Virus record (IMG/VR): IMGVR_UViG_2526164599_000010
Length of the DNA: 37,768 nt
Origin: a virus
Lineage: Duplodnaviria > Heunggongvirae > Uroviricota > Caudoviricetes
Direction: 5' to 3' (one strand)
How positions within the stretch are numbered: position 1 is the first letter of the stretch; each line of letters begins with the position of its first letter. The notes under the pieces were generated by a model, which saw only the letters and a program-made list of their open reading frames with translations, was not told where the DNA came from and did not search any database. The translations under genes and the position numbers were made by a program. Positions 3,787 through 36,779 of the stretch are shown piece by piece.

Positions 3787-4314
3787 TTACTCAGGCTTTT
3801 GTGGCCATTCGGGCTTTGCCGTATCCACACGGCTGACCAGAACGCTGTAGCGCTCCCAGGCTTCCAGTCGTGTACGTTCCTCATCTGTTGCCATATTCAG
3901 CCTGACAGCGCGTTCCAGTGGCTGAATAACGCTTTCCGCTTCGGAAAGTAACGCGGCCTTTTGTGATTCGGCCTGTTGTTGCTGTTCTTCTGCCGTATAA
4001 ATCCGTTTAACCACAGCACCATCCTTAAACATCCATTTACCTGAGTCGTCAGCACGTCGGTTGGAGGTAATATCAGGAACCTCAACAACGCTAAAACCTT
4101 CAGGATTAAGCGTTGAAGCATCTCTGGTGATAGCGACAATAATATTATTTTCATCGTAAACAATCTTTATTGTGTCTGACTGAAAGTTCTTCACTTCCTC
4201 ATACCAGTTTTTCCCGTCTTCAGTGTAAAGCCAGATGACTCCATGCTTCTTTGTTAACTCATACTGTTCCAGTGTTTTAGCGTTACCCGCTTTTATGTTC
4301 TTTAAGTGCATCAT
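3787..4314 (-). CDS. U: Tail-fibre assembly protein U
   Basis: 175-aa ORF; immediately downstream of S; paralogous to U'. Confidence 0.85.
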
Positions 4315-8129: not shown

Positions 8130-8719
8130 TGCATCGGCCCCGTGGTTCCGCCGCTGTCGCCGCGGTGGATATGCTTATCCGTCGATTTGCCATTGATGAT
8201 GGCATCCGGGGCAGTAATATTGCTGTCGAACTGGCTTTTACCTTTAACGCCCAGACCTTTCTGGATCTCAACGTCGCCGGTAAACGTGGTTCTGGGTGTA
8301 TCAACGGTCATGCTTTCATCAGCGTAAATCTCAACCGTTTTACAGGTAATGATGCAGCGCCCGTCCTTTGTCAGCCTGATACGATGCCCCTCGTGGTGGT
8401 AAATGCCTGCATCACCCGGTTCAAGATTTGTCGGGCGGTAGCGGCGGTCTTCCACCACAACGGCAATCCCCTGATCACGTTGTGCACCCACACAGGCAAT
8501 CAGCGCCTCTGCGCCCGGCAGAGGAACGCTGAAATGCCCGTAATTTTGCAGGCGCTCCACTTCATCAGATTCCTCATCATCCAGCAGACCGACCTGCAGG
8601 TTCTGAACTTTTCGCCCGTCGTTAATCACGTTAACAACGGCACGCGCAAGCATCAGACGCACACGACGCATCAGCGGTGTCAGCAGGCGGTTCATGGCGG
8701 AATCATTTACTCTTTCCAC
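8126..8719 (-). CDS. Q: Baseplate hub/spike-like protein (Mu Q position)
   Basis: 197-aa ORF; ATGA-type overlap with V; conserved Mu order. Confidence 0.7.
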   Translation of the reverse strand: MERVNDSAMNRLLTPLMRRVRLMLARAVVNVINDGRKVQNLQVGLLDDEESDEVERLQNYGHFSVPLPGAEALIACVGAQRDQGIAVVVEDRRYRPTNLEPGDAGIYHHEGHRIRLTKDGRCIITCKTVEIYADESMTVDTPRTTFTGDVEIQKGLGVKGKSQFDSNITAPDAIINGKSTDKHIHRGDSGGTTGPMQ

Positions 8720-9846
8720 GGCGGCGTTTTCTCCGGGTGTCTGCGATAATAATCTTCAACCAGCGCATCAATACCGCCGTTACTGTCGCCGCCTTTCCTG
8801 TTTTTACGGTCGCTTTCAACCGGCACCAGAAAGCCTTCGCGTGGTGCAAGGCTGACGCGGGTTTTCAGCCCGTCCTGGTCATTCAGTATCAGGGTGACTT
8901 TGCTGACCAGTAATTCTGTGGTTTTGATGGCATATTTCGAGGCATCAATAGTGACCAGCAGGTTCGGCATCCAGAGTTGCCCGTCCTTGCGTGTCCATCC
9001 GTCAATTTCTGCCTCAAAGATGATGGATTTTGCCAGTCTGCGGCGTTGCTCACGCAGGGCGCGGGCCTGTGCATCCTTCGCCGTAATTTTGCTGTCGGCA
9101 ATGATGATCATCGGTCTGTAACGGGTCACATCACTGTCAGTGGCGGTCCCTTTCCGGGAGACGATACTTTTCGCATCAATATCATCACCCTCAGCACCGT
9201 TTGCGCGGGCATACCCCTTGACGGTGTATTCGCTGAACCGGTCGCGGAAGTCTTCCTCAAAATCCAGTGTCAGCAGGTTTTCTCCGAGAACCAGCTCATC
9301 AGTGGCTGTGCTGGCAGCCCGGCTGAATACCAGCTCTCCGGCGGCATTGCTGGTCATCAGTACACCGCGTGCGCGGGAGGCACGCACCAGCGCCTCATAA
9401 ACGGTTTCTGAATGGTCCAGCGTGAAGCCGGGAAAAACTGCCGAACTTTCCTTATCGGAAAGCTCCCAGCGAACGGTAACGCCATAAGGAGCGCACAGGT
9501 CACGCGCAATCTGCTCCAGTGTGCGGTTTTTCCACTGTCCGCCACTGTAAACGGCAGCACAGTCAATCAGGTCAGCCGTTTTGTCACGTCCGGCGACAGT
9601 GATTTTCATACTGTCAGCGGTCATCTGGCGTCGCCGTGAATCGATATAACCGGTGCAGATAATCTGCCCCCCGATTTCCAGCGTGAACGCCTTCCCCGGT
9701 GCCAGCCCGGATAAATCCGTACCCGGTGGCACGTTCACCCCCAGCTCAAAATATCCGGCTACGGATTCAATCGAGCGGGTGACAGAGACTGACGTCCAGC
9801 CGGTAAAAAGCCTGCCATCCGTTCGCAGCGTGACGGTATTACTCAT
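8707..9846 (-). CDS. P: Tail protein (Mu P position)
   Basis: 379-aa ORF; conserved Mu order. Confidence 0.7.
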
Positions 9847-11330: not shown

Positions 11331-13499
11331 TTACCAGCCTGTAATGTAGTTATCGCCCGCGTAAATATTCAGCCCCATACCGTCCTCGGTGACACGGGAA
11401 CTGGCCAGTCGTAACCCCTCGCCAAGTTCGACGCGCAGCGAGGCTTCCGCATTCACTTTTTGTTCCTGCGGTTCCTTATCCGGGGCCGTCCATTTCTGAT
11501 ACAGGTCGGTTACAAAACCGCCCAGATACTCCCCGGCGACACTGCCCAGCGTGGCACCGGCAACCGTACCCAGCGGTCCGGCAAGGCTGCCAACGGCACC
11601 GCCGAGCCATGCACCGGCTGTACTGCCAATTGCGCCTGCTTTTTCATGGGTTGACGCCTGCTCATCCATCAGGACGGGGGCAAGCTGGAGTGCCCCCATT
11701 ACCGGGCCACCCAGACGTGACAACGCACGACCGGCACCTTTCCCCATCCAGCCCAGCGCCCCGGCACCTTTTGTCATAACCCGACCGATCGCACTGCCTG
11801 CAAGTTTGTTTCCGATACCGGAAAACCACCCGCCAACAGCACGCCCGGCATCAGCCAGCTTTCCGACCGTTCCCGTAACCAGTTGCCCGGCAGCACTGCC
11901 TGCAAGCCTGCTCAGAAGACCGGATTTACCGGGTAAAGGTAATGGTGCAGGCCGTGCCGTTACCGGTACGCCGGGTGGGGGTAATGCCAGTACAGGGCGT
12001 GGTGCAGGTAATGCCAGCGGCTGTGGCCCCGACAACAGCAACGGCTGTCGGGGTAACAGGGGCGTCATGCCTCTGCCTTTCCGGGTGCGGCCACCACGGC
12101 CACCGCTTCCGTAACCGCCGAACCCGTGAGGCCAGTTAGTGACAAACACACGCTGAATGCCGATGCCTTGCAACAGCGCCTCAGACGTCATGGCATCCGG
12201 GACCGGCAGACCTGCCTGCCCACGTTTGCGGTTTCGCATCCAGCGCCACATACGACGCCCGGTTTTAAACGGATAACTGGCAACCTGCCATGAGGGTTTT
12301 GCCACGGCCCAGCCTGCTCTCAGGGCTTTATTGGCAAGCCAGACAGACACCAGAACAGCAGCCAGTTTTTTCAGGCTGACAATATTCTGGTCAACCCATG
12401 CCAGCGCATCCTTACCCGGTTTCAGCCAGCGCCATAATTCCTGCGCCGCGATTTTTACCGTTCTGAACGTGGTCAGAAATTTCTGACCAATGTTTTCTGC
12501 CAGTGCGTCAAGTTCCCCGGATTTATCCGCCATGTCGTGCCAGTTAAGCACCCGGCGCATCTCGTTCTTGATTTCTTCAAAGGGGCCGCTGTTTGCCACC
12601 TTCGTGCGAAACTCAAGCAGGTTGCCCTCCATCTGGGCCATCATCCCGTCCCAGGAGTTCATGGCAGCCGCCTGTGCGCCTTTTGACTGCTCCAGCAGGG
12701 TCCGGAATACCGTCAGGATGGATTTCAGGCCCAGCTTGCCTTTTTCACCCAACTTGCGGATTTTTTTCTCATCCTCACCCGTTGCATCTGCCAGCACCTT
12801 GTAAACGTTGATGCCATAGCCGGTCAGCAGGTTGGCATCCGCCGCGGTGATTTGCTGGCGGGCAAACATCTGTTTGAACTGTAACGAAGCCCCCTGTGCA
12901 GTGGGTAAATCCCAGCCGTGCATCGCGCCCTGGTTCTGTAGCATGGTGATGAACTGTTTTACCTGTTCATCATTCATACCAAACGCCGTTGATGTGCGGA
13001 TTTCCTGCAGAACGCCGCCCAGCCCCCAGGTGGTTTCTTTTGCGTTCTGTTTCGCCCAGGCCATCATGGCCTGCGCTCTGGCCTTATCGCCGTGATACAG
13101 CGAGTTCATGGCGATGATCTGCTGCTCACGCTGGGCGGCTGCACCAATAAACAGTTTATTGGCGGTGTAACCCACGCCAGCGATACCCAGCGCCCCGGCT
13201 GACAGCATTCGGAATGTACGGGTTGACAGAGAACCCATTCTGTCAATGGCACCAGAAACGCGCACAACCTCCATACGCAGGGCACGAAGGGAACTTTGTC
13301 CGCTACGGGACAGGGCGTTTATCTGGTTCGAATACTGGCGGGAACGCCGGGAAAGATTGCCATTAAGATCAATAATGACAGACGCCTTTAAGCGTTTCCC
13401 GGTCATAGAGATTTCCTGATTTAACGGTGATATTGAGAGAGGGTTTTCGCCTGCTGGCAGTGCCGGAAAAAGCGGGACAGCGGGAGAGACAAGGCCCAT
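11331..13499 (-). CDS. Y: Tail tape-measure protein (Mu Y position); start uncertain (13499 or the internal ATG at 13406)
   Basis: 722-aa ORF, longest tail gene, Ala/Gly-rich with an internal Pro-rich low-complexity region; lies between the tail tube/chaperone genes and N. Confidence 0.75.
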
Positions 13500-14360: not shown

Positions 14361-15848
14361 TTACAGAATGAACTGAACTTGTGCCGCGAAAATGCGGAAC
14401 TGGTTAATCAGATTCGGGCCGCACAGCACATCAAGGCGGTCTTTGTCGTCCTTGTTACGTGCCACATACAGCTCCTCTTTGAACGTGTCGAAATCCTCGA
14501 CCAGTCCGGCGTTTTCCCATTCTTCAAACAGTGCCAGCAGCTCCGTTTTGATCACGGATGGCGTCACCACGGCCTGACCGGTGGCAAAGCGGGTGCCATC
14601 ACTTGCCAGTTTGTAGTTCGGGAATTTCTGCGTGATGCGAGTTCGCAGCGAATAACGCAGATAACTCAGCGTGGCGATGGTATTCACGTTCAGATAAGAC
14701 GGATCACTGTCACCGTACTTGTTTGTGCGGTACATCGTGATCATGCGTTCAATCTGCATTTCACCACCATCATTCACGTTAAACGTGGAGATGCCGTCAA
14801 ACAGCAGCGCATTACGTTCTGACCAGGTGAAACGATCCCCCACCGCAGGCGGCATTCTTCCGGGCAACGTCAGCGTCTGGAGAGGACGCGCCGGGTCGAT
14901 GGAAAGCGCCTGGCTGGCAACGGCACACAGTGTGGCGGCGTACAGATATGACGGTTCCGGTGCACCGGCAATCCCCATACAGGAGATCAGATGATCATTA
15001 CGACTGACACCAAACGTGGAAATATCCCCATACGTGCCGGACAGCACTGTCACGGCAAAGCCATCAGCCTGATTGACCGGTCCCCAGCGTTCCTGCAATT
15101 CAGTGCGTAACAGATTCAGGTTCGGTTCATCGGTATAGGGCATCACAATATATTTGTATTGCAGATCGCCCATTCCCGCGATACTTGCGCTGATATCCGG
15201 GTTGCTGTTTTTCCCGGATGCGGCTTTGAATGCCGTGATAATCCCGTAAGGGGTGGTTTCACCCGCGTAATAGTTCCAGCGCACGTCCACGGCAGATAAT
15301 GCACCTGTAAATTTTGCACTCAGAACCACATCTGCATGGGTGTCATCATCCCCGCTGTCTGCGCGAACTTCTGCCGTCACCGGTAAATCCGGCTGACCTT
15401 TGATTCGGGCAACCAGCAGGTCAGCCAGCGCCGCTCCCGTTGCACCTGCTGCGACAGATACCGCCAGTCGCTGACCGGCAATGTAAGTCACAAGCGAGCC
15501 GTTTTCGCCTGCTGTTCCTGACAGTGAAATTTCACCGACAGCAGCATTACCGGTGCCGTTCCCCTGCGGAATACACCACAGCTCCGCCACGCGGTTAGCG
15601 TTCAGGAATGCATCTGCCATCAGTGCCAGCATGGAACCCTGACCAAACGCCGCACTGGCCTGTGAGCCGGAACGGATACGGACAGGCACGTCTGGTGCCG
15701 CACTGGCTTTACTTCCGCTTTGCCCGAACATCAGCACGCGCTGACGGGGTGCCGGTGTTCCGCTGACGGCATTACTGTTATCAAATTCGATATACGTCAG
15801 AGGAACACGAACATCTGACGGGATCGCGTTAAATGAAATATCGCTCAT
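14361..15848 (-). CDS. L: Contractile tail sheath protein (Mu L position)
   Basis: 495-aa ORF; size and position typical of a myovirus sheath. Confidence 0.8.
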
Positions 15849-22983: not shown

Positions 22984-24638
22984 TACCAGCCCCCTCGTTC
23001 AAACTGGTGATAATCATCAAAATCATCGTTATCAACATCATCACCACGGTGGCGTGGTGGCAGCGCCTGTATGCTGTCCTCGTCGATAACAAAACCATTC
23101 ATATAAGACGCTCTGACAGCCATACAGAGCGCCACGGCAAAGTCGCCATGTCGTCGGCCTTTACCGCCTTCATCTTTTGTGCGCCCCTTATCAATCTGCG
23201 GAATACCTTTGTCCACCTTGATGTGGAGCAGGTCATCAAGTGTGGTCTGGTGCCGGGCAATCGTGATGTTCGGCGCTTCAAACTCGCCTTTCAGTTTTGG
23301 CATCCACTCCTGATACCAGGATGCGGTCAGATTCACACAGTCGATCATCTCCGGGCCATAAATCAGACGGGCGGCTTCTGCCAGATAACCGCCGTTACCG
23401 GTGGCATCAAATGCAGCGCCGGTAAAACGGGGCAAACGGGACAGAATGAATAAAAGGATTTGTCGCTGCTGGTCATAGGTCACATTACGCAGCTCCACGC
23501 GGAAACATTCGCGTTTGCGTAAGTCTGGAGTGATGGCAAGCGGCACAAACACCGTCAGGTCGCCACGGCGTGCAAAGTCTTCGCCCAGTACGTGTTTATT
23601 GAGCGGCGACAGCGCATCGAGCAACGGGAGCAGCTCCTGTTCACACCAGTCCTGAACGATGCCGTGGCGCATTTGTGGTGTCAGCGATTCAAAATCGTCC
23701 GGGGCTTCAAAACGCAGAATCGGGATATCCCGCGCTGGCGTCATGGCGGCTTCAATCAGCACGCGTGACAGATAAGCGCCCCCGGATTTTTTAGGAATGC
23801 AGCCGTATTCCTCGTCGGCACTCTCTTTATTCGGCGCATTCCGGTACAAGCCATCACGCCAGGCTTTTTCCGCTTCCGGCGACCACGGCTGATTCGTGAC
23901 GTAACAGATACGTCGGTACAACCCGTCAGCGATGGCATCATCCAGCGTGATGCGGTGAACGCTGTAATCCTTGCGCCCCTCGCGCGCATCCTGAATGTAC
24001 TGGTTAAACAGGTTATCGACGCCGTTATGTGTCGATATGATGCGCACGCTGGCACCCCACATGTTTAGTGCAAAGGCCGCTTTCAGCAGTTCGTCCAGGG
24101 CTTCATGGAATGCCGCCTCATCAATCACCACGTCCCCCTGCAAACCACGCAGGTTAGACGGGCGGCTTGACAGCGCCTGTATCTTAAATCCGCTGTTCGG
24201 AAAGCGGATCATGTAGGTGAGGATTTCTTCTTTTTTGTCGCTGTCCCAGAAGGTCTGCTCCCAGACGTCAGCCTTTGCCAGTTGGTTAAAGGCGCGGGCA
24301 AACAGGGCACAGGCGGCGATGTATTCCAGCGCCATTTCCTGACGGGAACCCACATAAAAGACGTTGCGACCACCGCGACGCTTCGGCTTTGCGGCCGTCA
24401 TGACATTGCGGCCCGCTTCAGCCCATGTCAGACCGGTTCGACGGGATTTTTCAGCAATACAAATCTGGCTTTCATCCTCAAACCAGCGGCGCTGATAGCC
24501 CAGAAAAACCGGTTCATTGCGGGGCTGTGCTTCCCCGATATCGGTCACGATATTCACGCCCAGCAGTCCGGCTTCCTTACGCAGGTCGATTTTGCGGGGC
24601 GCATGAAGGGCTTTAAGTTTGCTTTCTCTGGTACTCAT
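22983..24638 (-). CDS. E: Terminase large subunit (Mu E position)
   Basis: 551-aa ORF with an N-terminal ATPase-like region and a C-terminal nuclease-like region; position before the portal gene. Confidence 0.8.
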   Translation of the reverse strand: MSTRESKLKALHAPRKIDLRKEAGLLGVNIVTDIGEAQPRNEPVFLGYQRRWFEDESQICIAEKSRRTGLTWAEAGRNVMTAAKPKRRGGRNVFYVGSRQEMALEYIAACALFARAFNQLAKADVWEQTFWDSDKKEEILTYMIRFPNSGFKIQALSSRPSNLRGLQGDVVIDEAAFHEALDELLKAAFALNMWGASVRIISTHNGVDNLFNQYIQDAREGRKDYSVHRITLDDAIADGLYRRICYVTNQPWSPEAEKAWRDGLYRNAPNKESADEEYGCIPKKSGGAYLSRVLIEAAMTPARDIPILRFEAPDDFESLTPQMRHGIVQDWCEQELLPLLDALSPLNKHVLGEDFARRGDLTVFVPLAITPDLRKRECFRVELRNVTYDQQRQILLFILSRLPRFTGAAFDATGNGGYLAEAARLIYGPEMIDCVNLTASWYQEWMPKLKGEFEAPNITIARHQTTLDDLLHIKVDKGIPQIDKGRTKDEGGKGRRHGDFAVALCMAVRASYMNGFVIDEDSIQALPPRHRGDDVDNDDFDDYHQFERGGW

Positions 24639-24912
24639 GGGTGAAAAATCCGGTGTAAAACGTTACCGGCGAATCCAGGAACAACCGATCACCTGACCTG
24701 CCGTCGCCGGGCATCCGCCATTTTCATCTCCTCAGGACAACATCCTTAGTTGCTTTATGGTGGTATGCCATGAATTGCCTGAAGCCATGGCCTGAACAAG
24801 CACATCCCGAATCTGGTGTATCAACCGGACATCAGACAATGTTGCAATCCTGAAGGCTTTTTTATGGGCACTGATTAGCTGTGCTTTGTAATTATTTTTC
24901 ATAACGTAACGC

Positions 24913-25503
24913 CTACGCTTTCCCCAGCAGTACATCACGGATGCGCTGCTCCAGTTCTTCGCTGATGCCATCCTGCCCGCGCAGTTCTTCACTGACAGCG
25001 TTTGCCGCTTCTTCTGCGAACGCCTGGCGGATTTCTTTCTCGCGCCGGTGGCTGGACATTGCCGTGGATTCCAGACGCTGTGCCGCCAGCATGGCATTTT
25101 TCAGCAGGTCAATATCCACGTCAGATTCCGGGTTTTCGATTTGCCGCATCATGGCCTTAAAAAGCTGGCTGCGGGCCATTTCCAGAATCAGCTTTGTGGT
25201 TTCGCCCATTGGCTTGTCGCCAAGTTCTGCGGTCAGTGCTGACGTCATTTCACGCATCTGTCGCAGGTTATGGCCTACCTGCTCGACGTTCGTCGCGTAA
25301 CGGTTCAGACCGGAACGGGAGAGTTTCATCTCATCCGGCAGGCCTGCGTCTTCAATCAGTGCGTTAATTTCTTCCAGAATGCGGGCCTGTGGGATCGCCT
25401 TATCACGCAGCATTTCATGCAGCGTTTTACGTACGTTTTCCGGCAGTAAATCCACTTTTGAAGCCCGGCCCCGTGTTTTCCTGTCCATCACGCCTCCTGT
25501 CAT
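24913..25503 (-). CDS. D: Terminase small subunit-like DNA-packaging protein (Mu D / gp27 position)
   Basis: 196-aa ORF, charged and helical, upstream of the large terminase gene. Confidence 0.6.
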   Translation of the reverse strand: MTGGVMDRKTRGRASKVDLLPENVRKTLHEMLRDKAIPQARILEEINALIEDAGLPDEMKLSRSGLNRYATNVEQVGHNLRQMREMTSALTAELGDKPMGETTKLILEMARSQLFKAMMRQIENPESDVDIDLLKNAMLAAQRLESTAMSSHRREKEIRQAFAEEAANAVSEELRGQDGISEELEQRIRDVLLGKA

Positions 25504-25790
25504 GCACGTGGACGCGGACGCTTGACACCGGCAACGCGGGCGCGGCCTTCCGCCACATCCTGACCTCGGGAGGTCAGCGTTACGACATAAAAGCCGCGCA
25601 GGTTTTCCACGGTGACCAGTTGCTGCTCTGCCAGCCAGTCAATCTGGCCGCGAACCACATCGCGGGAAACGTTGTGTCCGTATGCATCCAGACAGTCCTG
25701 AAGGATGGATTCGTTGGCTTCGTTATTGCAGTCCATCAGGGAACGCAGGATGACCAGACGACGGTCTTCAGTCAGAATATCGTTAATCAT
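25500..25790 (-). CDS. Late protein (Mu gp26 position)
   Basis: 96-aa ORF, ATGA overlap with the downstream gene. Confidence 0.6.
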   Translation of the reverse strand: MINDILTEDRRLVILRSLMDCNNEANESILQDCLDAYGHNVSRDVVRGQIDWLAEQQLVTVENLRGFYVVTLTSRGQDVAEGRARVAGVKRPRPRA

Positions 25791-26104
25791 GAATTACTCC
25801 GGTTTACTGCGTTTTCAAGCAGTAGCTCCAGTTGATGGGAAAATGACTGCACCCGCTGGGACAGCACCCGGATATCGCCGGACAGCTCTGCAATACGCAG
25901 GCGCATTTCGTGTACATCTTCTGTGCCAGGGATGCTGGCGTAGCGGGTTTCCATTTCGGTCATCCGGTTTTCAAGACGCTCCACACGCTCGGTGCTGGCA
26001 AAACTACGACGCATCGCCCAGACGGCCCCACCGGCCACAACAGGCAACAGGTAAGGCCATAACGCTAAAACTGAAATCAAATCCATTATTCTGCTCCACG
26101 GCAC
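25787..26104 (-). CDS. Membrane protein in the lysis region (Mu gp25 position; candidate releasin)
   Basis: 105-aa ORF with an N-terminal hydrophobic segment (LISVLALWPYLLPVVAGGAVWA) and a charged coiled-coil tail. Confidence 0.6.
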   Translation of the reverse strand: MPWSRIMDLISVLALWPYLLPVVAGGAVWAMRRSFASTERVERLENRMTEMETRYASIPGTEDVHEMRLRIAELSGDIRVLSQRVQSFSHQLELLLENAVNRSNS

Positions 26105-26280
26105 CAGTGGCAGTAGTTCGCCATCGGCTGCTGTCTCAGCACATCAGGCCGCAGCTCACGACCGCAACCGGCACACAATACAGGCGGGTCATACGCCGCC
26201 GGGCGGGGAATATCACGGGTATCCCCCTGCCAGAGTTCAGCGAGCAGCAGCGCCACCGCCCGGTTCTGGTCTTCGTTCAT
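26086..26280 (-). CDS. Small Cys-containing protein (Mu gp24 position)
   Basis: 64-aa ORF with CxxC...CxxC motifs. Confidence 0.5.
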   Translation of the reverse strand: MNEDQNRAVALLLAELWQGDTRDIPRPAAYDPPVLCAGCGRELRPDVLRQQPMANYCHWCRGAE

Positions 26281-26578
26281 AAATTTCTTTCCTTCGGATC
26301 TCCTGTTCCCGGACTGATGCCTTGTCGCGGTTGCACTGCCCGAGCGCCATCAACAGGTCAGCATTCCAGAGAAGGGATGCTCCCCACGTCAGGGGCTGTG
26401 GCATGGGCGGAACGGGCGTTGCTTCTGTCAGTTCTGTATCAGTTTCGGGCAGGATCACCACCGATGGCACGGGTGCGTTTTTCGAGTTCCCGCAACCTGT
26501 CAGCAGCAACGGCAGGCACAGGACGAGTGCTGCAATTGTCACCAGTAATGGCGGTTGTAATTTTTTCTTTTGCATCAT
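26237..26578 (-). CDS. Outer-membrane spanin lipoprotein (o-spanin), overlapping the i-spanin gene
   Basis: Starts MMQKKKLQPPLLVTIAALVLCLPLLLTGC: signal peptide plus lipobox LLTGC; out of frame and overlapping the 3' part of the preceding TMD-protein gene, the classic overlapped spanin arrangement. Confidence 0.7.
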   Translation of the reverse strand: MMQKKKLQPPLLVTIAALVLCLPLLLTGCGNSKNAPVPSVVILPETDTELTEATPVPPMPQPLTWGASLLWNADLLMALGQCNRDKASVREQEIRRKEIYERRPEPGGGAAAR

Positions 26579-26825
26579 GATGTTCTGTCTCATCTGCCAG
26601 CCGTGCGGCACGATTTGCGGCACGGATAGCGGAAAATACCTGCATCGTCTGTTCCTGACCGTGTAACAACCATTCAGCAGTGTGGCGGGCCTGTTGCTCC
26701 GTCTGTAATTCACGGCGCAGCGTCTGGTTATCGTGGCGGGTGCTGTCCAGCCTGTGCCACAACACCCCAGACAGAACGGCGGTAAACACGGCTGCCAGCA
26801 GTAAACTTTTACTGGCGAAGGTCAT
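26439..26825 (-). CDS. Inner-membrane spanin (i-spanin)
   Basis: 128-aa ORF with an N-terminal TMD (SLLLAAVFTAVLSGVLW) and a charged helical periplasmic domain; immediately after the endolysin gene. Confidence 0.7.
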   Translation of the reverse strand: MTFASKSLLLAAVFTAVLSGVLWHRLDSTRHDNQTLRRELQTEQQARHTAEWLLHGQEQTMQVFSAIRAANRAARLADETEHHDAKEKITTAITGDNCSTRPVPAVAADRLRELEKRTRAIGGDPARN

Positions 26826-27327
26826 CCGCCCCCCTGATATTCCAGATTGCCATTTCCACTTCGCGACGGTTCATCAGTCCTTTCCATTTATGGCCTGCGG
26901 CAAACACCCAGCGGGCCATCTGGTCACGCGCTCCGGCGTAATCACCGGCATTGAGTTTTTTCAGCAGCGTTGATTTACTGAATGCGGTAACACCGGTGTT
27001 GAAAATAAATGTTGCCAGCGCCGTTTTCTGATATGGCGTCAGCGGCACCCTGACAAGACGATCGATTGCCGCATAAACCGGTTTTAAATCACTGTCGAGG
27101 AGAGCCATACACTCCGCATGGCTGTAACGGCGCATTTCGATATCCGGCCCGGTATGTCCCACACAGACCGTAAGCACACCGGCAATATCGCGGTAAGGCA
27201 TATAAGCGATATTTTCCAGATGGATCAGAGACTGACGGGTCATTTCCTGATAACCACCCACACCACCACCGGCAATCGTTGCCGCCAGCAGTGCGGCTTT
27301 CAGTTTTTTTGGTATCCCCGCCATCAT
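26809..27327 (-). CDS. lys: Endolysin with N-terminal signal-anchor-release (SAR) type segment (Mu lys)
   Basis: 172-aa ORF; N-terminal Gly/Ala-rich weakly hydrophobic segment (LKAALLAATIAGGGVGG) followed by a lysozyme-like domain; first late gene after C. Confidence 0.85.
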   Translation of the reverse strand: MMAGIPKKLKAALLAATIAGGGVGGYQEMTRQSLIHLENIAYMPYRDIAGVLTVCVGHTGPDIEMRRYSHAECMALLDSDLKPVYAAIDRLVRVPLTPYQKTALATFIFNTGVTAFSKSTLLKKLNAGDYAGARDQMARWVFAAGHKWKGLMNRREVEMAIWNIRGADDLRQ

Positions 27328-27398
27328 GCTTCCCTGAAAAAATGCTCTGATGGCAGTCTAAAAAATCAGGTGACAGGTGCGGGATTATGGTGACAGGA
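27328..27398 (-). promoter_or_regulatory. Candidate C-activated late promoter Plys region
   Basis: Non-coding interval between the C terminator and the lys start; contains AGGTGCGGGA (27375..27384), identical to the 10-mer upstream of gene I. Confidence 0.55.
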
Positions 27399-27423
27399 AA
27401 TAACCGGCAGGATGCCGGTTATT
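27399..27423 (-). terminator. Intrinsic terminator of the middle transcript, overlapping the C stop codon
   Basis: Minus strand reads TAA-CCGGCA-TCC-TGCCGG-TTATTTCCT; perfect palindrome AATAACCGGCAGGATGCCGGTTATT. Confidence 0.7.
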
Positions 27424-27841
27424 TTGGGCTTTCAGGTGAGAACAGATCAGGCTGATGACGCCGTGTATGCAGCTTTCTCTGGCGGGCAATAATCTGGTAG
27501 ATCTGCGGCTGGGACAGGCGGTACTGGCGACGCAGTTCTTCCATGTTACGACCATTGAACTGGCAGTAAAGCAAATCGTCGCGTAACGCGGTCAGGATAG
27601 TATCGCCACAGGGGATATAAAACTGCCGCCCGCCCAGAAAACAGGACAGGGCAACGGCCTGTTTACGGGCAAGCTCACGGGGATTGCTGACGTTCTGGCG
27701 TTTCAGTTCGTTTTCCAGAACATCAATCAGATCAACCACCGAACGGGGCCAGCGTGATTCCAGTTCCGGGGCCGGGATGTTATCAATATGTCCGATTAAC
27801 TGGCGAATTGCCGGATCGTGTTCAAATAAATCATGCTGCAT
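27419..27841 (-). CDS. C: Late-gene transcription activator C
   Basis: 140-aa ORF, last gene of the ~1.2-kb middle operon; C-terminal HTH-like region; paralogous in layout to Mor (both ..FNGRN..EL..Y..). Confidence 0.85.
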   Translation of the reverse strand: MQHDLFEHDPAIRQLIGHIDNIPAPELESRWPRSVVDLIDVLENELKRQNVSNPRELARKQAVALSCFLGGRQFYIPCGDTILTALRDDLLYCQFNGRNMEELRRQYRLSQPQIYQIIARQRKLHTRRHQPDLFSPESPK

Positions 27842-27854
27842 ATTTTCCCCCGGT

Positions 27855-27974
27855 TAACAGACAGAAAGATACACCACGGCACTGATGGTTATCAGAACCA
27901 CAAGGGCAATCACTTTTATCGCATTAATCAGCGTGGACGGCCCGAAACATTCATCACTGAATTTTCTGTACATG
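27855..27974 (-). CDS. Small hydrophobic peptide (39 aa) in the middle operon
   Basis: ATG..TAA ORF MYRKFSDECFGPSTLINAIKVIALVVLITISAVVYLSVC, too short for the ORF track; fills the gap between the upstream membrane-protein gene and C. Confidence 0.4.
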
Positions 27975-27982
27975 GTGCCCCT

Positions 27983-28345
27983 TTACCCGAACAGACGAGC
28001 GCGAAAACGAAAGGAGAGCCAGAACGTCAGCAATCCGGCCAGCGCCCAGATGACATGCTCAGGACCCGTTTTCAGTTGAGACGTTGCCATCACGGCTAAT
28101 CCCAGCCCGGACAGACTCCCCAGCCAGGTCAGCGGCCAGACGAACCGGGCAAAATGTTCAGGCACCCGGCAGCTCATTATCAGCGCATCCAGACAATCAC
28201 CGGCAACACATAAAGCAACACTGAAAACCGAGGCACAGCAAAACATCAGCGCGCGCCAGCCACAAAACAGACTTATCCACAATAACAGCGCCAGTAACAC
28301 CACCGATAAAAAATCAGGCCACTGACGAGCAGAACGCTCAGACAT
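27983..28345 (-). CDS. Integral membrane protein of the middle operon; start chosen at the internal ATG 28345, which has a GGGAGA Shine-Dalgarno
   Basis: Multiple hydrophobic segments; 8-nt overlap with the upstream ORF. Confidence 0.6.
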   Translation of the reverse strand: MSERSARQWPDFLSVVLLALLLWISLFCGWRALMFCCASVFSVALCVAGDCLDALIMSCRVPEHFARFVWPLTWLGSLSGLGLAVMATSQLKTGPEHVIWALAGLLTFWLSFRFRARLFG

Positions 28346-28556
28346 AATGTTTCTCCCTGTAAAGCAGGCAATGATGAAGAATTTCCGGCATATCAACTGA
28401 CTGCCAGCCTTTCATGTAATAACTGCCGTGGGTGCCATCATGACCGGTATAGTCGCGGGGTGCAGGCCGTGGCCCACCGGCGACACGGTGCAAAACCTCC
28501 TGACGCAGCCGCTCACGTCTGCCAAGATGAAAGGATGCATTCCAGCCTTTACCCAT
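28338..28556 (-). CDS. First gene of the middle operon (Mu gp18 position)
   Basis: 72-aa ORF just downstream of the early terminator. Confidence 0.5.
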   Translation of the reverse strand: MGKGWNASFHLGRRERLRQEVLHRVAGGPRPAPRDYTGHDGTHGSYYMKGWQSVDMPEILHHCLLYREKHYV

Positions 28557-28603
28557 GATGATTTCCCCCGGTACGGTTATTCATCACAGGATATTGAGGA
28601 CGT

Positions 28604-28628
28604 AAAAAAAGCCGGATTAACCGGCTTT
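28604..28628 (-). terminator. Intrinsic terminator at the end of the early operon, just after mor
   Basis: Minus strand reads AAAGCCGG-TTAAT-CCGGCTTT followed by TTTTTTTACG; located about 6 nt after the mor stop. Confidence 0.75.
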
Positions 28629-28633
28629 ACTGT

Positions 28634-29023
28634 TTACAGAAGTGAGGGCTGGTACTGGCGGTATTTCAGCCGTCGCATCCGGCGAATGGCCTTGTAAACC
28701 GTATTGAAAGTGACACCATAACGGGTGGTCAGTTCGCTGACGTTGCGACCGTTAAAATCATTCCAGATACGCAAATCCCGAATCAGCGAGTCCAGAACCT
28801 GACCGCGTGGAATGTAGACCTGACCGCCGCCCAGATGCTTACAGATAGCCACAACAATCTCCAGTGAATGGGCAGGATCAACACCCAGCCGGGACAATTC
28901 CCCGCGTAGTAAATCGTTCAGCTCCGCCAGCAGTGCCGGAAAGCGTGACGTATCCTCTGCGGGATTGTCAAGATGTGCCAGGATGGTGTCATCCTGCAAA
29001 TCACCAAATAAATCTTCCGTCAT
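28634..29023 (-). CDS. mor: Middle operon regulator Mor
   Basis: 129-aa ORF, last gene of the early operon, ATGA overlap with gemA; same family as C. Confidence 0.85.
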   Translation of the reverse strand: MTEDLFGDLQDDTILAHLDNPAEDTSRFPALLAELNDLLRGELSRLGVDPAHSLEIVVAICKHLGGGQVYIPRGQVLDSLIRDLRIWNDFNGRNVSELTTRYGVTFNTVYKAIRRMRRLKYRQYQPSLL

Positions 29024-29571
29024 TGTGCCATCCTCCGTGTCTTTCTGGCATGGGCATAAGCCGCCGTCATGGCATCATAGCCGCGCAGTTCACGCCCGGA
29101 CGGACTGACTGGCAACGGAAGCCCGTGACGGGAAAAGGCTTCACGAATACAGCGGATATGCCACTGCTTGAGAGTTTCGAGAACAATCAACAGGGTGTCG
29201 CCATGACACCACGCCAGCGTGGAAACGCCCTGTCCGCCATTACGTTTCGCCGTCAGGCGCTGAACATATTTATCCAGCGCCACATCACCGCCATCGGTAA
29301 TAAAACCGTCTTCTGCCATCTGCTGCCAGACTTTGTATACCTTCTCGCGGGGCGTGACATGCCCCTTAAAGCGGCGACGTGGATGTTTATTCAGCTTCTT
29401 AAAGCCGCGTTCTTTCATGGCATCGAGCACCTGTTCCAGTTGCGTAACCGTCAGCTCGCGGCAACTGATTTTGCCCGTTTTCTGCATCAGAAAAGCGCGG
29501 TAAGTGTCGTCGTCGAGTTGTAGCTCCCGACGGGCGACATGGATTAATTTAATCAGGGATGTGCGATTCAT
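29020..29571 (-). CDS. gemA: GemA protein
   Basis: 183-aa ORF directly upstream of mor; preceded by AGGAGGT. Confidence 0.75.
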   Translation of the reverse strand: MNRTSLIKLIHVARRELQLDDDTYRAFLMQKTGKISCRELTVTQLEQVLDAMKERGFKKLNKHPRRRFKGHVTPREKVYKVWQQMAEDGFITDGGDVALDKYVQRLTAKRNGGQGVSTLAWCHGDTLLIVLETLKQWHIRCIREAFSRHGLPLPVSPSGRELRGYDAMTAAYAHARKTRRMAQ

Positions 29572-29845
29572 GATCGTACCTCCGGAAAGAGGCGGTGCTG
29601 CAACACCGCCTGAATTTACACATCAATCAGAGAGGATTTTATGGAAAATAATGTACAACCTTATGATGTTGCAGGTTATGCGATTGCATCAGCACTGGTG
29701 CGCCTTCTGGTGAAGAAGGCGATCATCACCGCAGAAGAGGGCCAGGCCATTTTCAGCTCTTCAGCAGAGATTTTAAAAGATGCGCCTGCAATAAGAACAA
29801 GCCGCCGCGAAAACATGCAACTGTCAAAGATCATGGAAGACATTA

Positions 29846-30148
29846 TCAGTTCGTTAGACCCAGATGCTGACGGATCTCAAAAGCCTCAAACACATGAGCG
29901 TCAGTAACAATATCCTGGTCTGATAACCCCAGCCTGCGGCGGATGTACTCCTCGCGGGCTGTTTCATTTTGCAGTGCCACTACTGTTTCCAGACGATTCA
30001 TTTCGCGGTTGATAATGTCACGGACTTCTCTGGCGGTGAGATTATGCTTAATACCATATTCAACGATAGCGCGAACACGTTCCAGCATCCCTTTTTCAGC
30101 CATGACGTTATCAATATTAAGGGGAGTAAATTTATCTTCATTGTTCAT
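29846..30148 (-). CDS. Early semi-essential region protein, function unknown
   Basis: 100-aa ORF, translationally coupled to the upstream gene. Confidence 0.6.
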   Translation of the reverse strand: MNNEDKFTPLNIDNVMAEKGMLERVRAIVEYGIKHNLTAREVRDIINREMNRLETVVALQNETAREEYIRRRLGLSDQDIVTDAHVFEAFEIRQHLGLTN

Positions 30149-30468
30149 TTTGCGGCCCTCAGAATAAATTCAGGATAAAATTTCAGACTCATTTGCCGTA
30201 ACACATCCAGTGCAGCAACGGCTGCTGATTTATCGTTGCCATCAGCAATAGCGCGGAGATTTTCAATAATCCAGTGAGGACTCAGTGACTCAGCAATAAT
30301 GCCAAACCGGTACGCCATGACCTCATCAATAGCTTTTTCATGAGACGTCTCATATACAAAATTCACAAATTCATGCACTTCTTTTTTCGGCAAACCACCG
30401 GCAATCAGCAGGGCGGCAAGCTCTTCTGATTTTGAAAATACACCATTATTCATATCACTCACCTTCAC
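30145..30468 (-). CDS. Early semi-essential region protein, function unknown
   Basis: 107-aa ORF. Confidence 0.6.
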   Translation of the reverse strand: MKVSDMNNGVFSKSEELAALLIAGGLPKKEVHEFVNFVYETSHEKAIDEVMAYRFGIIAESLSPHWIIENLRAIADGNDKSAAVAALDVLRQMSLKFYPEFILRAAK

Positions 30469-30637
30469 AATTCATGCACGCCGTGTCATCGCCCATATCG
30501 CAGTGGTTGCATTTCTGCCCGCCACAATGAGGGCACTCTTTCAGATATTCAGGGGATTCATTACCGCAGGTCGGGCATTCCTGTTTCACCGTGGTAAATT
30601 TCCCCAGCCACGAATACGATGTTTCACTGTTTTCCAT
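30455..30637 (-). CDS. Small zinc-ribbon protein (three CxxC pairs), function unknown
   Basis: 60-aa ORF with CPTC...CPHC...CNHC...CMNC. Confidence 0.6.
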   Translation of the reverse strand: MENSETSYSWLGKFTTVKQECPTCGNESPEYLKECPHCGGQKCNHCDMGDDTACMNCEGE

Positions 30638-31154
30638 TAGTTACCTCCGCCTGTTTTTGCGCCCGGATAAATTCGTCAGAAAGGATTTCAGTCATGCGGC
30701 CTTGCGCGGGTGTCATCCCCGTCATGACGTAAATCACATCACCAACACGGAACCACTGGAGCGGCCCGAATATTGTTGCGCTGAAATCCAGTCCCAGTGC
30801 GGGTAAAAGAGCGTCTGTGCGGGCGTAAGTGACCGGAATATTCTCCTGCCATATTTTCGCCAGCTCTCTTGCCTGCTCCCTGAGATGAGCAGGTATCCGC
30901 GAAGTTCTGGGCCTGCAACTGTTACCTGATGCGGGCCGTTGTACGGTCCACAGCTCCCGCGAGAAGGGGCGCTCATTCCCCGGAAAGTTCACACCATGAA
31001 AATGACGCCCACCAATACCGGTGCTGAATACTGACCGGCAACCACAGCCCAGAACCTTATCAAGATGGCGGGCTTCTTCGCGTAGTTTCAGGCAGTCCGC
31101 CATAAACTGGTCCCATGCCAGCAGTGCTGCGGGATTTGACGTTTTAAAAAACAT
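30624..31154 (-). CDS. Early region protein, function unknown; start set at the internal ATG 31154, abutting the upstream stop
   Basis: Track ORF 30624..31193 begins inside the upstream gene; MFFKTSNPAALLAWDQF... from 31154. Confidence 0.55.
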   Translation of the reverse strand: MFFKTSNPAALLAWDQFMADCLKLREEARHLDKVLGCGCRSVFSTGIGGRHFHGVNFPGNERPFSRELWTVQRPASGNSCRPRTSRIPAHLREQARELAKIWQENIPVTYARTDALLPALGLDFSATIFGPLQWFRVGDVIYVMTGMTPAQGRMTEILSDEFIRAQKQAEVTNGKQ

Positions 31155-31684
31155 CACGCCACCTCCTGCACCGTTGCGGGAACCGGAGAACAATCAAGAA
31201 TGAGATAACGCAGTACATGGTCGGTGATATTCCAGGCGCTTGAACTGCAAATAAAACGCCCCAGCCGGATATCGATATAAGCCATCACAAAACGGGGCAT
31301 TCCCTGTTCGCACATTCTGTTATCCACCTCAGCAACAATGTGGACTGACTCACAGGTCAGCACGCCCGTCGCAAACTCTTTTGCCAGTGCGGGGATGGTA
31401 TTACCTTCCACCCAGGGTAATGAGCGACGCCAGTTGCACCACACCGCATCATCAACAGCAGGCTGTTCAGTTGCGCTTCGTCTTACAGGCGGCGTCGGAC
31501 GCGGGCGCGGAACGTCATAAAATCCGTTGCATTCGGTGAGAACGCCGGCATCAACCGCATCACGCAGGAAATACACCATTGATGAGGAAGGCATCTTCAT
31601 TTTTTCAGCCAGAACTCCGCAGGTCAGGCGTCCGTAAGCCCGTAATAATGTGCTGACACCATTCAGAATTTTTGCATCAACCAT
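31154..31684 (-). CDS. Early region protein, function unknown
   Basis: 176-aa ORF preceded by GAGG; first gene after the gam-proximal intergenic gap. Confidence 0.6.
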   Translation of the reverse strand: MVDAKILNGVSTLLRAYGRLTCGVLAEKMKMPSSSMVYFLRDAVDAGVLTECNGFYDVPRPRPTPPVRRSATEQPAVDDAVWCNWRRSLPWVEGNTIPALAKEFATGVLTCESVHIVAEVDNRMCEQGMPRFVMAYIDIRLGRFICSSSAWNITDHVLRYLILDCSPVPATVQEVA

Positions 31685-31782
31685 GTTTTATTCCTCAGTA
31701 ATCTTTTTCAGGCGCGAGCAATCCCCTGACGCATCGCGCCATAATTAAAAGAATGTGAATTAATTAAATATTAATGGTGGTA

Positions 31783-32307
31783 TTAAATACCGGCTTCCTG
31801 TTCAAATGGAATAATGGAAAAATCTTCAATTCCCGATTTAACCGTAATTCCGGCAACACCTGCGACGGCTTTTGGTTCCAGTAAAATCGCCTCCTTGTTG
31901 ATTTCCTGCTTCGTGCGAATAAAGCGTTGCAGGCCAAGGCGCTCCAGCGTTTCCATCACTGCATCCATACCACGAATACTTACTGATGGTGGACGGACCC
32001 GCCACGATACATCACCGGTGACAAGATTCGCCGTCTTCACTTTGCCGCCGTTCGTCAGTTCGTCGCGGTTCGCTTCACACCATCCCTGAACGCCTTTTGA
32101 AAGGGTTTCAATATCGGTTTTAATCGGTGCAATCCGGGCCGCAAATTTCTCCGTAATTTCCGCGATGGCATCATTCATTTCCGTTTCCAGACGTGATGCT
32201 TCGCGCTGTAAATCCCCGATGCGTTTAATATCGATAATCACCGCATCGCGGTTTTGTGGCACATAAGCCGCTGCGGCACTTTTGATGCGTTTTGCTGGTT
32301 TAGCCAT
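31783..32307 (-). CDS. gam: Gam, Ku-like DNA-end-binding host-nuclease inhibitor
   Basis: 174-aa ORF MAKPAKRIKSAAAAYVPQNRDAV...; recognised as Mu Gam by sequence recall and by size and position. Confidence 0.85.
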   Translation of the reverse strand: MAKPAKRIKSAAAAYVPQNRDAVIIDIKRIGDLQREASRLETEMNDAIAEITEKFAARIAPIKTDIETLSKGVQGWCEANRDELTNGGKVKTANLVTGDVSWRVRPPSVSIRGMDAVMETLERLGLQRFIRTKQEINKEAILLEPKAVAGVAGITVKSGIEDFSIIPFEQEAGI

Positions 32308-32326
32308 AAATTAAAGCTCCTGTTAA

Positions 32327-32626
32327 TTAATATCCGCTGTATACAATGCTGGATACAGCACGATTGCTTAATTCCATCTTTCGGGCAATGACATGAATAT
32401 CCAGCCCTTCTTTATAAAGTTCACGACACAAATATTTATCGTGTTCACTGACCTGGTATGCACATAACGATATTCCGTGCCTTCTGGCATGTGCCCGGAG
32501 GGCGGTTGTGGCGACGTTCAGTTTTTCCGCCATTTCTTCAACGGTCATTTTTCCAACGTTGGCTTCAATAAATTCCCGGTCTTCGCGTGACCAGTGCTTA
32601 CGATTACACTTCATGTCAGCCACCAT
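32327..32626 (-). CDS. Small HTH-type DNA-binding protein
   Basis: 99-aa ORF with a helix-turn-helix-like stretch (MTVEEMAEKLNVATTALRAHARRHGI). Confidence 0.6.
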   Translation of the reverse strand: MVADMKCNRKHWSREDREFIEANVGKMTVEEMAEKLNVATTALRAHARRHGISLCAYQVSEHDKYLCRELYKEGLDIHVIARKMELSNRAVSSIVYSGY

Positions 32627-33046
32627 TCAGTACAGCAGAGGCTCGCGCATTGATGCCGGAATATGCCGCAGCGATAGCTGAACGGCTTTCAGGGCAAGCG
32701 AGGAATAACAGCAGCGCGCCCAGCTTTTTGCCATTAATCGGTAATCGCGCCAGATACGCTGCCACGTTTCACGTGCTTTCGGGTCTGATACACAGATGTA
32801 TTCCCGGTCCATGACGTATTCCCATAAATCCACGTTGAACGCACCGCCAAACGCAATGGCGCGGGAAATGCTTTCACCGCAATAACGCGCACAGATGCTG
32901 TAATGGTCGAAAGCAATCAGGTAAGTCTTTTCACCATAACCATCAACTTCACGCGCACAAATAAACTCGCGTAATTCACCACCGTTGTTATTACGTTCCC
33001 GGATTCGGATTAATGCCTGAATTTCATTTCGGATTTTGACGTTCAT
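32627..33046 (-). CDS. Early region protein, function unknown
   Basis: 139-aa ORF. Confidence 0.55.
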   Translation of the reverse strand: MNVKIRNEIQALIRIRERNNNGGELREFICAREVDGYGEKTYLIAFDHYSICARYCGESISRAIAFGGAFNVDLWEYVMDREYICVSDPKARETWQRIWRDYRLMAKSWARCCYSSLALKAVQLSLRHIPASMREPLLY

Positions 33047-34787: not shown

Positions 34788-36779
34788 TTAAATGGCTTTT
34801 TTACGTCTGTTCTGTTCCAGTATATCCAGCGAATGATTCAGATATTCATCACGCTCAGTTTCGTATTCATCATCACGCTCCTGATTCTTCACTCGTTCCG
34901 TATTACCGGAAGGCCGGAAAATGCCGACAATTCGTGATTCTGGTGCTTCAGGTTCGGCTATCTGCGGCAGCAGCTCTGCCACTTCCAGTGCATCCATTTG
35001 TTTCTGTGCCTTAATTGCTGCTTTCGTCGCAGATTTCAGTTGTTTCTGGCGGCGGCGATATTCACGGCCTGCCGCAGCATCATTAAACGCAACAGGTGCC
35101 AGACATTCCGCTTCACAGATAAACCGACCGTCCAGGGTGTAGCAATAAACCGTGCTGTGTAGCTGTTGTGGATCAAATCTGACCACAACTTTTTTCACTC
35201 CGGCATTCATTAACGCCATGTTGTAATAAACGTTTTTCGCGCCTTTAAGGGAGCCGCCAACTTTAAGCGTAAACTCGCCTTTGCGTGAAACGTTCACCGC
35301 CTCGGCAGGCAGTAACAGCATCCGTTTTTGTTCTTCGGTTGGCTTACGCACAATCGTTCTGGCGTATTCACGCTCGAAAACATCATCAAACGAGAGTTTG
35401 CCCCCGCACATTTCTGTTTCACGGCCTGTTCTGGCATTGAACATCGCCACACCTTCGGCAAGGGTTTTCAGAAACAGCTCTGCATCAACAGCGCGGTCGC
35501 CATAGTTATCAGGTTTTGCCTGCGGATTAGGCCCCGTATATGCGCCAGCCAGTGCCGGATGCTTATCAACGTATTCCTCAAGCCCACCAACACCGAAAGC
35601 ACGTTCAACAGGTTTTGCCTGGCCCCAGCCTTTACCGGCAACAACGCTTGTCCAGTGCATTTTCGCCCCCATCAGTAAAAACAGTCCTTTTGGATCGTCC
35701 TCTTTTACCTTAAAGCGGTAGCGATTGGGCGCGCCTCCCGTCAGCCATTTATTCGCAGCACCACGGGTGTTATCAATGGTGATGTGAAAATCCTCCGGGA
35801 TACCGTAGCGAGTCACAACATCCATGAACGAGAGGCGAATTGAATCAATGTTCTCGCTCACATCGCAGCGCCAGCCCAGAATTTTTCGGGTTTTCACATC
35901 CTGCCAGAACCATGTTTTCGGGCGGATCACATCACCGTTAAACCAGCGTACAAAGACGTTATGCAGATAACCGTCGCCGTTGATCCACTGCATGGCGTCC
36001 AGGTGTTCCACAGTTCGCTGCTGTGCCGGTATCAGATGCATCAGTGCATGTTCACCTTCACGACAGGCAACAACCATTGCCTCGTCCAGTTGCTGAATCC
36101 GGCGAAAGGCCGTGGCACGGGAGGGAATACTCCAGCCATGCTCGCGGGCTGCCAGTTCCAGACGCTCATAACATTTGCGGAAGGCGGGTTTTTCCGGTCG
36201 CAGATAATCTGCAATCAGAAACTGCCAGGCATCCTCGTCAAATTCACTTTTGTGAACGTTGCGACGGGATGCACCACGTCCATCAACAAGCGCAGCCGCC
36301 CAGTCAGGCTTCGCAAACTTCTGTACCTGGTAATACTTGTCCCGCAAAGTGGATGCGCTGACCTGGTAATGCCCTGCAACGGTCGCAAAAGCCGTTTTTG
36401 TTGAAATCCCCTGGTTCAGCATTTCGTCTGCAGCCTGAACCGCAGGCAACCATTTTTCAGCAAGTCTGCGCTGGGAATCGCTGGCGTTATCCCATTTGCT
36501 CCACAGTGCCTCACGATCATAATCATGGGCTTCCAGCGTGGGGCGGGCGATTTCAAAATACCCCAGGCTTGTTTCAATCTCTCCTTGTCTCAGCAATAAC
36601 GCCGCTTTCGCTTCAACAGGTAAAGAGTTCGCATTGTATTCAATTGCTTTACCACCTTTGACACCTGCTCTAGTGCGGTTTTGCCATCCTTGCTTTTTAG
36701 CAACATAAATCACACCAGCCGATGTTTTCGGCAAACCAGGAAGATTCGCACACTCTTTCGGTGATACCCAAAGTTCCAT
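34788..36779 (-). CDS. A: MuA DDE transposase
   Basis: Track ORF 34788..36788 (666 aa); start moved to the third Met ([18 protein letters not shown]...), giving 663 aa with the ATG one nt after the ner stop; sequence recognised as MuA. Confidence 0.95.

Follow-up and report, generated by a model that had tools for sequence, protein, structure and literature searches.

The predicted terminator after mor and the Mor-dependent middle promoter share the same DNA in a Mu/D108-type phage sequence

The middle promoter of phage Mu, Pm, has been dissected experimentally over three decades. It has neither a -35 element nor an extended -10 (PMC4287176). The Mor binding site in Pm is 16 bp long, from -51 to -36, and is described as a G/C-rich hexanucleotide between two inverted repeats of 5 bp (PMC4287176, PMC4390567). 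Individual bases have been named further upstream, G at -57, T at -56, and A at -55, -54 and -53 (Ma and Howe 2015, PMC4390567), and in the open complex the bottom-strand T residues at -12, -4, -1, +1, +3 and +4 are reactive to permanganate (Mo and Howe 2014, PMC4287176). The positions of the UP-element subsite and the alpha-CTD footprint used below were taken from PMC4390567 and PMC4287176. On the Mu record AF083977, positions 9163..9233 are annotated as 'middle promoter, activated by Mor, PMID 8602357', and positions 9179..9200 as a terminator predicted by TransTermHP. The D108 record GQ357916 has a rho-independent terminator at the matching place (9228..9249). All of the promoter feature (71/71 bp) and all of the terminator feature (22/22 bp) of Mu are identical in the DNA analyzed here, at 28641..28571 and 28625..28604, respectively, and the flanking genes, gemA and mor on one side and 18, 19, 20 and C on the other, are in common as well. 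The feature is thus already known, as Mu Pm and the terminator after mor, both of which are annotated on the Mu record. The difference from Mu nearest to the element is at 28565 in the 5' UTR, which is G here and in D108 and A in Mu.

A comparable arrangement is found in Mu one step later in the regulatory cascade, where the activator gene C ends with a hairpin that is directly abutted by Plys, a promoter that also has no -35 hexamer. Like Pm, Plys depends on a dimer of the Mor/C family bound at -43.5. In contrast to Pm, the activator is C instead of Mor, the hairpin has a different sequence and a poor T tail, the annotated overlap between hairpin and promoter is only 4 nt, and the activator site is not inside the hairpin as the Mor site is. 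The hairpin after mor also resembles generic intrinsic terminators of E. coli and phages, in that it has a G+C-rich stem, a short loop and an immediate U tract just after a stop codon, and in that an upstream A tract pairs with part of the U tract. Compared with these generic terminators, its stem is shorter than average, and it is unusual in lying wholly within the recognition region of the next promoter.

The window, i.e., the whole stretch of 37,768 nt that was analyzed (IMG/VR record IMGVR_UViG_2526164599_000010), has the reverse orientation of the standard Mu map. The region from 27300 to 29100 is 99.5% identical to D108 and 98.7% identical to Mu. Over 25 kb, the alignment with Mu runs from Mu position 339 onward, and the alignment with D108 begins only at position 1181 of the window query. 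By these alignments the window is a Mu/D108-type mosaic, in which the immunity end aligns with Mu and the mor-C region is closest to D108. The start of the window is exactly Mu position 339, the end of the repressor gene c. A short-query blastn search of the window gave no match to the left end of Mu (1..60), the right end (36650..36717) or Pmom (35693..35759), and the phage ends, perhaps along with the mom region, may be missing from the window or different in it.

An earlier reading made from the letters and open reading frames alone (the sequence-only reading) had called the gene upstream of the hairpin mor. This identification was confirmed by a match of the product to the Pfam family PF08765 (Mor) with E = 4e-33, and by identity to Mu Mor at 128 of 129 residues. 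The coordinates of mor, of the middle operon and of the control elements between and after them are listed in Table 1. The semi-early promoter before gemA (Mu 8151..8217) is kept in the window at 29652..29591 on the minus strand (62/62 identical), and the terminator after mor would therefore be the end of a gemA-mor transcript as well.

Table 1. Coordinates of genes and control elements at the junction between mor and the middle operon, at the end of C, and in one complete related phage.
Feature	Position	Strand	Position relative to Pm start, or remarks
mor, 129 aa, last gene before the terminator	28634..29023	minus	ORF list; annotated as mor in the Mu and D108 records
mor stop codon TAA	28636..28634	minus	Read ...CTG TAA, then ACAGT (5 nt)
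Pm upstream region	28641..28632	minus	-61..-52; overlaps the last mor codons and the stop
alpha-CTD footprint	28641..28639	minus	-61..-59; inside the last mor codons
UP-element proximal subsite	28637..28632	minus	-57..-52; includes the mor stop codon (-56..-54)
Mor DNase I footprint	28636..28613/28616	minus	-56..-33 or -36
Mor-binding dyad AGTAA-AGCCGG-TTAAT	28631..28616	minus	-51..-36, centre -43.5; published description and sequence
Predicted terminator hairpin in the early RNA, AAAGCCGG / TTAAT / CCGGCTTT	28628..28608	minus	-48..-28, centre -38
Hairpin 5' arm, AAAGCCGG	28628..28621	minus	
Hairpin loop, TTAAT	28620..28616	minus	
Hairpin 3' arm, CCGGCTTT	28615..28608	minus	-35..-28; pairs with -48..-41
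T7 tract (U tract of the predicted terminator)	28610..28604	minus	-30..-24; the first three T are the end of the stem
Putative Pm -10 hexamer, TATCCT	28593..28588	minus	-13..-8; assigned from the melted -12 and conservation
Start (+1) of the middle transcript	28580	minus	Derived from published permanganate data and base identities
Middle operon coding region	27419..28556	minus	ORFs; Mu and D108 annotation
Gene 18	28556..28338	minus	First ATG at 28556, 47 nt past the T-run
Gene 19	28345..27983	minus	
Gene 20	27973..27854	minus	
C, 140 aa	27841..27419	minus	Pfam Mor family, E = 9e-34
C-stop hairpin, AAATAACCGGCA-TCC-TGCCGGTTATTT, 12 bp	27424..27398	minus	-15.5 kcal/mol; overlaps the C stop (27421..27419)
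Plys, C-dependent promoter	27401..27335	minus	AF083977 10403..10469; overlaps the last 4 nt of the hairpin
Mor/C-family gene and core of Klebsiella phage Kp4866-3	7569..7949 and 8309		Coordinates in Kp4866-3

The sequence-only reading had placed a textbook terminator, a hairpin followed by seven T, at 28604..28628, six nucleotides after the mor stop. We found that the outer coordinates are correct and that the spacing is five nucleotides (ACAGT) between the stop codon and the stem. An 8-bp stem that is then followed by seven T does not hold, because three T are counted twice. The tract has seven T in total, three of which pair with the AAA of the stem, and past the 8-bp stem the minus strand continues with TTTT (28607..28604) and then ACG. 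The hairpin can be read equivalently as an 8-bp stem with T4 or as a 5-bp G-C stem with T7.

Several properties of this site point to an intrinsic terminator. The 8-bp stem, with five G-C pairs and a 5-nt loop, was the top terminator-like site in a consensus scan of 24000..33000. The folding energy was -11.7 kcal/mol for the hairpin alone and -8.3 kcal/mol for the 5-bp G-C core alone. Within a 61-nt context the energy was -14 kcal/mol (z = -4.2), and none of 200 shuffled sequences folded as well. Using a stricter scan (5 or more perfectly paired bp in the stem, 4 or more of them G-C, 3-8 nt in the loop, and an uninterrupted run of 6 or more T), we found exactly one site on both strands of the whole 37.8-kb window, the hairpin after the mor stop. 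The number expected by chance was 0.07 sites per sequence, as determined from simulated sequences with the same dinucleotide content, 21 of 300 of which had any such site. There were only two runs of seven or more T on the minus strand of the window, and the T7 tract is one of them. There was no Rfam family match anywhere in the window at the gathering threshold. The stem-loop, the U-run and the position after a co-oriented gene that characterize intrinsic terminators were thus all found together, at a site that is rare in this sequence. We conclude that the hairpin after the mor stop is a canonical but short predicted terminator, with five G-C pairs and four U after the 8-bp stem. Given these numbers, the efficiency of termination could be modest. 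In the papers searched we found no experimental proof of termination at this site.

The palindrome also folds when read from the plus strand (-12.2 kcal/mol), and any 3' hairpin stabilizes an RNA that ends there. Both points would fit a hairpin that serves mainly as a 3' stability element, protecting mor mRNA from exonucleases, or as a bidirectional terminator, and that does not mark an operon boundary. We consider this very improbable. A stabilizing effect would be a consequence of termination and no alternative to it, and there is no credible convergent plus-strand gene here in the ORF list. A bidirectional terminator was rejected because the stem is followed only by TTTAC on the plus strand, making it a poor terminator in that direction. 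The hairpin is best read as a predicted terminator of transcripts that come through mor.

The sequence-only reading had also argued that Pm must lie within or overlapping 28557..28640, and had proposed comparing this stretch with the published Pm sequence and Mor footprint. The position of the annotated Mu feature bears out the placement, and on comparison the sequence was 100% identical and the published landmarks fell on these bases. To assign them, we determined the register of the promoter. Placing +1 at 28580 is the only register in which there is a top-strand A at all six permanganate positions. It also makes 28637 a G, 28636 a T and 28635..28633 AAA, as published for -57 to -53. Because two independent sets of published base identities fit, we fixed +1 at 28580. 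The annotated Mu Pm feature then ends at +10, which is consistent with this assignment, and the span from about -62 to +10 is identical at 71 of 71 positions to the experimentally characterized Pm of Mu. The sequence in the place of a -35 hexamer is CCGGCT, which matches the consensus at two of six positions, and there is no TGn ahead of the -10 hexamer.

A consensus scan of the spacer between mor and gene 18 detected no full sigma-70 site. Taken by itself, this would favor the hairpin being a terminator only, with no part in initiation, and Pm lying elsewhere, either further downstream or inside gene 18. Pm, however, is known to have no -35 hexamer, and a consensus scan is therefore unable to detect it. 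The sequence, footprints and start site published for Pm fall on these bases with 100% identity, so that published footprinting and mutational data on the identical sequence contradict a location elsewhere. In addition, a -10-like hexamer at a fixed spacing and the A at -51 are conserved in 87 contexts among the matches listed (see below). We give a location of Pm elsewhere almost no probability, and we place Pm on the hairpin. Its cognate activator, Mor, is encoded directly upstream of Pm in the same genome. Mor-dependent transcription from +1 has been shown in the literature for the identical Mu sequence, and by virtue of the 100% identity it is predicted for this phage.

With the register fixed, it is apparent that the terminator and the promoter are the same DNA and not neighbors. 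The Mor-binding dyad is the 5' arm and loop of the hairpin, and the 3' arm and T tract occupy promoter positions -35 to -24, with the 3' arm in the place of a -35 hexamer. A single stretch of 40 bp holds the mor stop codon, the terminator and the Mor site. We think it highly probable that the 77-nt spacer between mor and gene 18, together with the last mor codons, is one control element that is read both as RNA and as DNA.

In the RNA reading, polymerase coming from Pe, or from the semi-early promoter before gemA, would transcribe AAAGCCGG-UUAAU-CCGGCUUU-UUUU, which would act as an intrinsic terminator. The early RNA would be released at about -24 to -21 of Pm (28604..28600), just short of the -10 hexamer, and its release there would insulate C and the late genes from early transcription. 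We infer this step from the sequence, from the annotation of two records (program predictions), from conservation, and from the terminator, or end of the early transcript, near 9.2 kb in the Mu literature.

In the DNA reading, the same bases are the upstream half of Pm, a sigma-70 promoter without a -35 hexamer. Once Mor accumulates, a Mor dimer would bind the dyad AGTAA-N6-TTAAT, and alpha-CTD would bind the A-rich stretch just upstream, over the mor stop codon. Together they would recruit the sigma-70 holoenzyme to the -10 hexamer, with transcription starting at 28580. These DNA-level steps are published experimental facts for Mu, carried over to the window through the 100% sequence identity. 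Since all of the hairpin is upstream of +1, Pm transcripts never contain it and are not terminated by it. They would run 1183 nt through 18, 19, 20 and C to the C-stop hairpin. In this form of dense coding, one palindrome would serve as RNA for arriving polymerases and as a protein site for starting polymerases. For annotation, the value of this assignment is that the early/middle boundary is fixed, with the end of the early RNA and the start of the middle RNA predicted at the positions given above.

The downstream end of the middle operon agrees with the size of its transcript. According to the sequence-only reading, the next gene starts about 50 nt after the terminator and begins a unit of about 1.16 kb that ends at a terminator overlapping the C stop, a length said to match a middle transcript of about 1.2 kb. 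The ATG of gene 18 is indeed 47 nt past the T-run. Measured to the end of the C-stop hairpin at 27398, the distance is 1159 nt from this ATG (28556) and 1183 nt from +1 (28580), in good agreement with both lengths. The C-stop hairpin has a poor T tail and was absent from the list of sites in the consensus scan. Both the Mu record (AF083977 10383..10406) and the D108 record list it as a terminator, and we presume that it is the 3' end of the middle transcript. Overall, the interpretation given in the sequence-only reading is supported, with refinements in the count of T residues, in the identity of the terminator and promoter DNA, and in the reach of Pm into the coding end of mor. There is a candidate C half-site, TTAT (27403..27400), in the 3' arm of the C-stop hairpin; it is separated by 11 nt from ATAA (27388..27385), and the published spacing is 5-6.

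We compared the junction with Mor loci from IMG/VR (25 loci, with Mor 35-100% identical), from metagenome and NCBI contigs (Mor 65-83% identical) and from GTDB (12 loci). A core, rAAGCCGG-TwAAT-CCGGC followed by T7 or T8, was present and invariant at every locus with Mor at least 62% identical. Both flanks of the core diverge. On one side the 3' coding end of mor differs, and on the other, from about -3 on, the sequence can differ wholly; in some Mor-linked loci the flanks around the core are replaced. The core was absent from distant Mor/C homologues with 34-45% identity (from Vibrio, Shewanella, BD1-7, Spirabiliibacterium, Defluviitaleaceae and two IMG/VR contigs). Unrelated hairpins occur at some of these loci, and at others there is no spacer. 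Because the distant homologues are without the core, the arrangement cannot be generalized to the whole Mor family.

The genes around the core vary as well. In relatives with Mor 65-81% identical (L030/L031, 1975..2535; L033, 582..1178), the first gene after the core is not gene 18 and encodes GH108 and PG_binding_3 domains. An endolysin-like GH108 gene in this place would put a peptidoglycan hydrolase under the control of the middle promoter. In prophages of Raoultella, Klebsiella, Kluyvera and Pluralibacter (L034-L039), there is an extra ORF of about 110 aa between mor and the core. It lies directly after mor, and the core sits 350-550 nt further on. The one product that was searched, from L036 (1890..2222), had no Pfam match. 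The extra ORF is poorly conserved, would be the last early gene, and looks like a moron-type insertion. Since it separates mor from the core, the core belongs to the operon junction and not to the mor stop.

To extend the comparison beyond these loci, we searched IMG/VR for the exact 24-mer core. There were at least 125 instances in at least 120 stretches of DNA, with 87 distinct contexts among the matches listed. Among these matches, a Mor homologue was found within 2 kb upstream in 97 of 125 instances of the core. A hexamer whose second base is A and whose sixth is T was located exactly 10 nt past the T-run in 68 of the 87 contexts listed, and in most of the remaining ones the spacing differed by 1-2 nt, in keeping with T8 or T9 runs. 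At other offsets the same hexamer was found mostly in 0-1 contexts, apart from 8-14 at offsets of 7-9 (T8/T9 runs) and 10 at an offset of 16, again among the matches listed. The A at -51, which is outside the hairpin and inside the Mor dyad, was invariant in 87 of 87 contexts among these matches, and the T tract ranged from T7 to T9 and was never shorter. G-21, A-12, T-8 and G-7 were invariant among 20 distinct Mor-linked sequences. Selection thus acts on the DNA itself, as seen in this comparison from the A at -51 and the fixed geometry of the -10 hexamer.

This pattern of conservation bears on whether the hairpin functions in RNA at all. The palindrome and T tract could be kept as DNA, as a promoter element only, with the hairpin terminating little or nothing and early transcripts ending elsewhere, ending through Rho, or reading through at a low level. 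The invariant positions -47 to -24 coincide with the promoter region, and the A at -51 and the fixed spacing of the -10 hexamer are constraints on DNA. Activation is reported to depend critically on bases immediately downstream of the Mor dyad, and this could alone explain why the 3' arm does not vary. The stem is also short, with five G-C pairs. There was no compensatory double change in the stem among the 87 contexts in the matches listed, in which the sole variable position of the stem was -48, either A or G, both of which pair with U. Since the stem is invariant save for this A or G, covariation has no power to separate an RNA hairpin from a DNA site.

Other observations speak against a role in DNA only, however. 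The perfect hairpin is strictly kept, and the 8-bp complementarity between -48..-41 and -35..-28 is centered at -38, whereas the Mor site is centered at -43.5; no described protein contact requires this complementarity. Where the operon ends, an exact 8-bp complement leads into a T7, the only one in the region, and this is the one such site in 37.8 kb against the 0.07 expected. Two independent annotations say that there is a terminator here. Moreover, the lone substitution seen in the stem of relatives, A to G at -48, keeps the pair in RNA (A-U to G-U). We therefore regard a promoter element without termination as unlikely, and favor a single stretch of DNA that would both terminate early transcripts and bind Mor.

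The core is not always next to mor. Within the window, there was no second or degenerate copy of the core with up to 5 substitutions. The sequence ACCGGTAAATCCGGC at 15379..15393 of the window has one mismatch to the palindromic core GCCGG-N5-CCGGC, with the TAAAT loop that is typical of relatives. Elsewhere, about 22 of the 125 instances among the matches listed belonged to a second flank class, ...CAGTG-core-CTGCCTTCCG-CATACT-G, with no Mor gene upstream. Some Mu-like IMG/VR contigs, in which Mor is about 63% identical, have two exact 24-nt cores. In L048 (IMGVR_UViG_2778261064_000003) these are at 4001..4024 and 11735..11758, both on the minus strand, and the same was observed for L066, L087 and L091. 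The two copies are on one strand, the second some 7.7 kb further downstream than the one linked to Mor. This second copy is located between an F-like gene (PF04233) and the gene for the I protease (PF10123), which is the place of the C-dependent promoter PI in Mu. The second copy, for which the cassette in L048 is at 4024..3990, has CATACT 10 nt past the T-run, and A-51, G-21, A-12, T-8 and G-7 are all kept.

We also counted the activator genes in these phages. L048, L087 and L091 have one Mor/C-family gene each within the captured 12-15 kb; L066 was left out of this count because too short a sequence precedes its first copy. Klebsiella phage Kp4866-3 (OK490420.1; L167), whose genome is complete at 33 kb, has one core and one Mor/C-family gene, the latter as a single tblastn hit (Table 1). 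It is quite possible, short of probable, that the core is a portable cassette, consisting of a Mor site within an intrinsic terminator and then a -10 hexamer at a fixed spacing, that serves as a general operon junction in a large clade of enterobacterial Mu-like phages and not just as the Pm of Mu, that there is a clade with a single activator, and that the cascade of Mu is derived. If so, a lone Mor-like activator would switch on the morphogenetic operons directly in that clade. The cascade there would have two steps, and the three steps of Mu (Mor, then C, then the late genes) would be a derived elaboration. Only the invariant core across contexts, the second copy before gene I and the single activator are possibly new, and these concern other phages.

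In one relative (L024, IMGVR_UViG_2531839192_000008), the terminator/Pm core is partly duplicated in tandem, ...GCCGGTTAATCCGGGAATCCGGCTTTTTTTACGCCCTCAATGCCGGTTAATCCGGCTTTTTTTACGCCCTCAATATTCTGT..., at about 1899..1965 of the locus. Either the control element is truly duplicated there, or the repeat may be an artefact of assembly.
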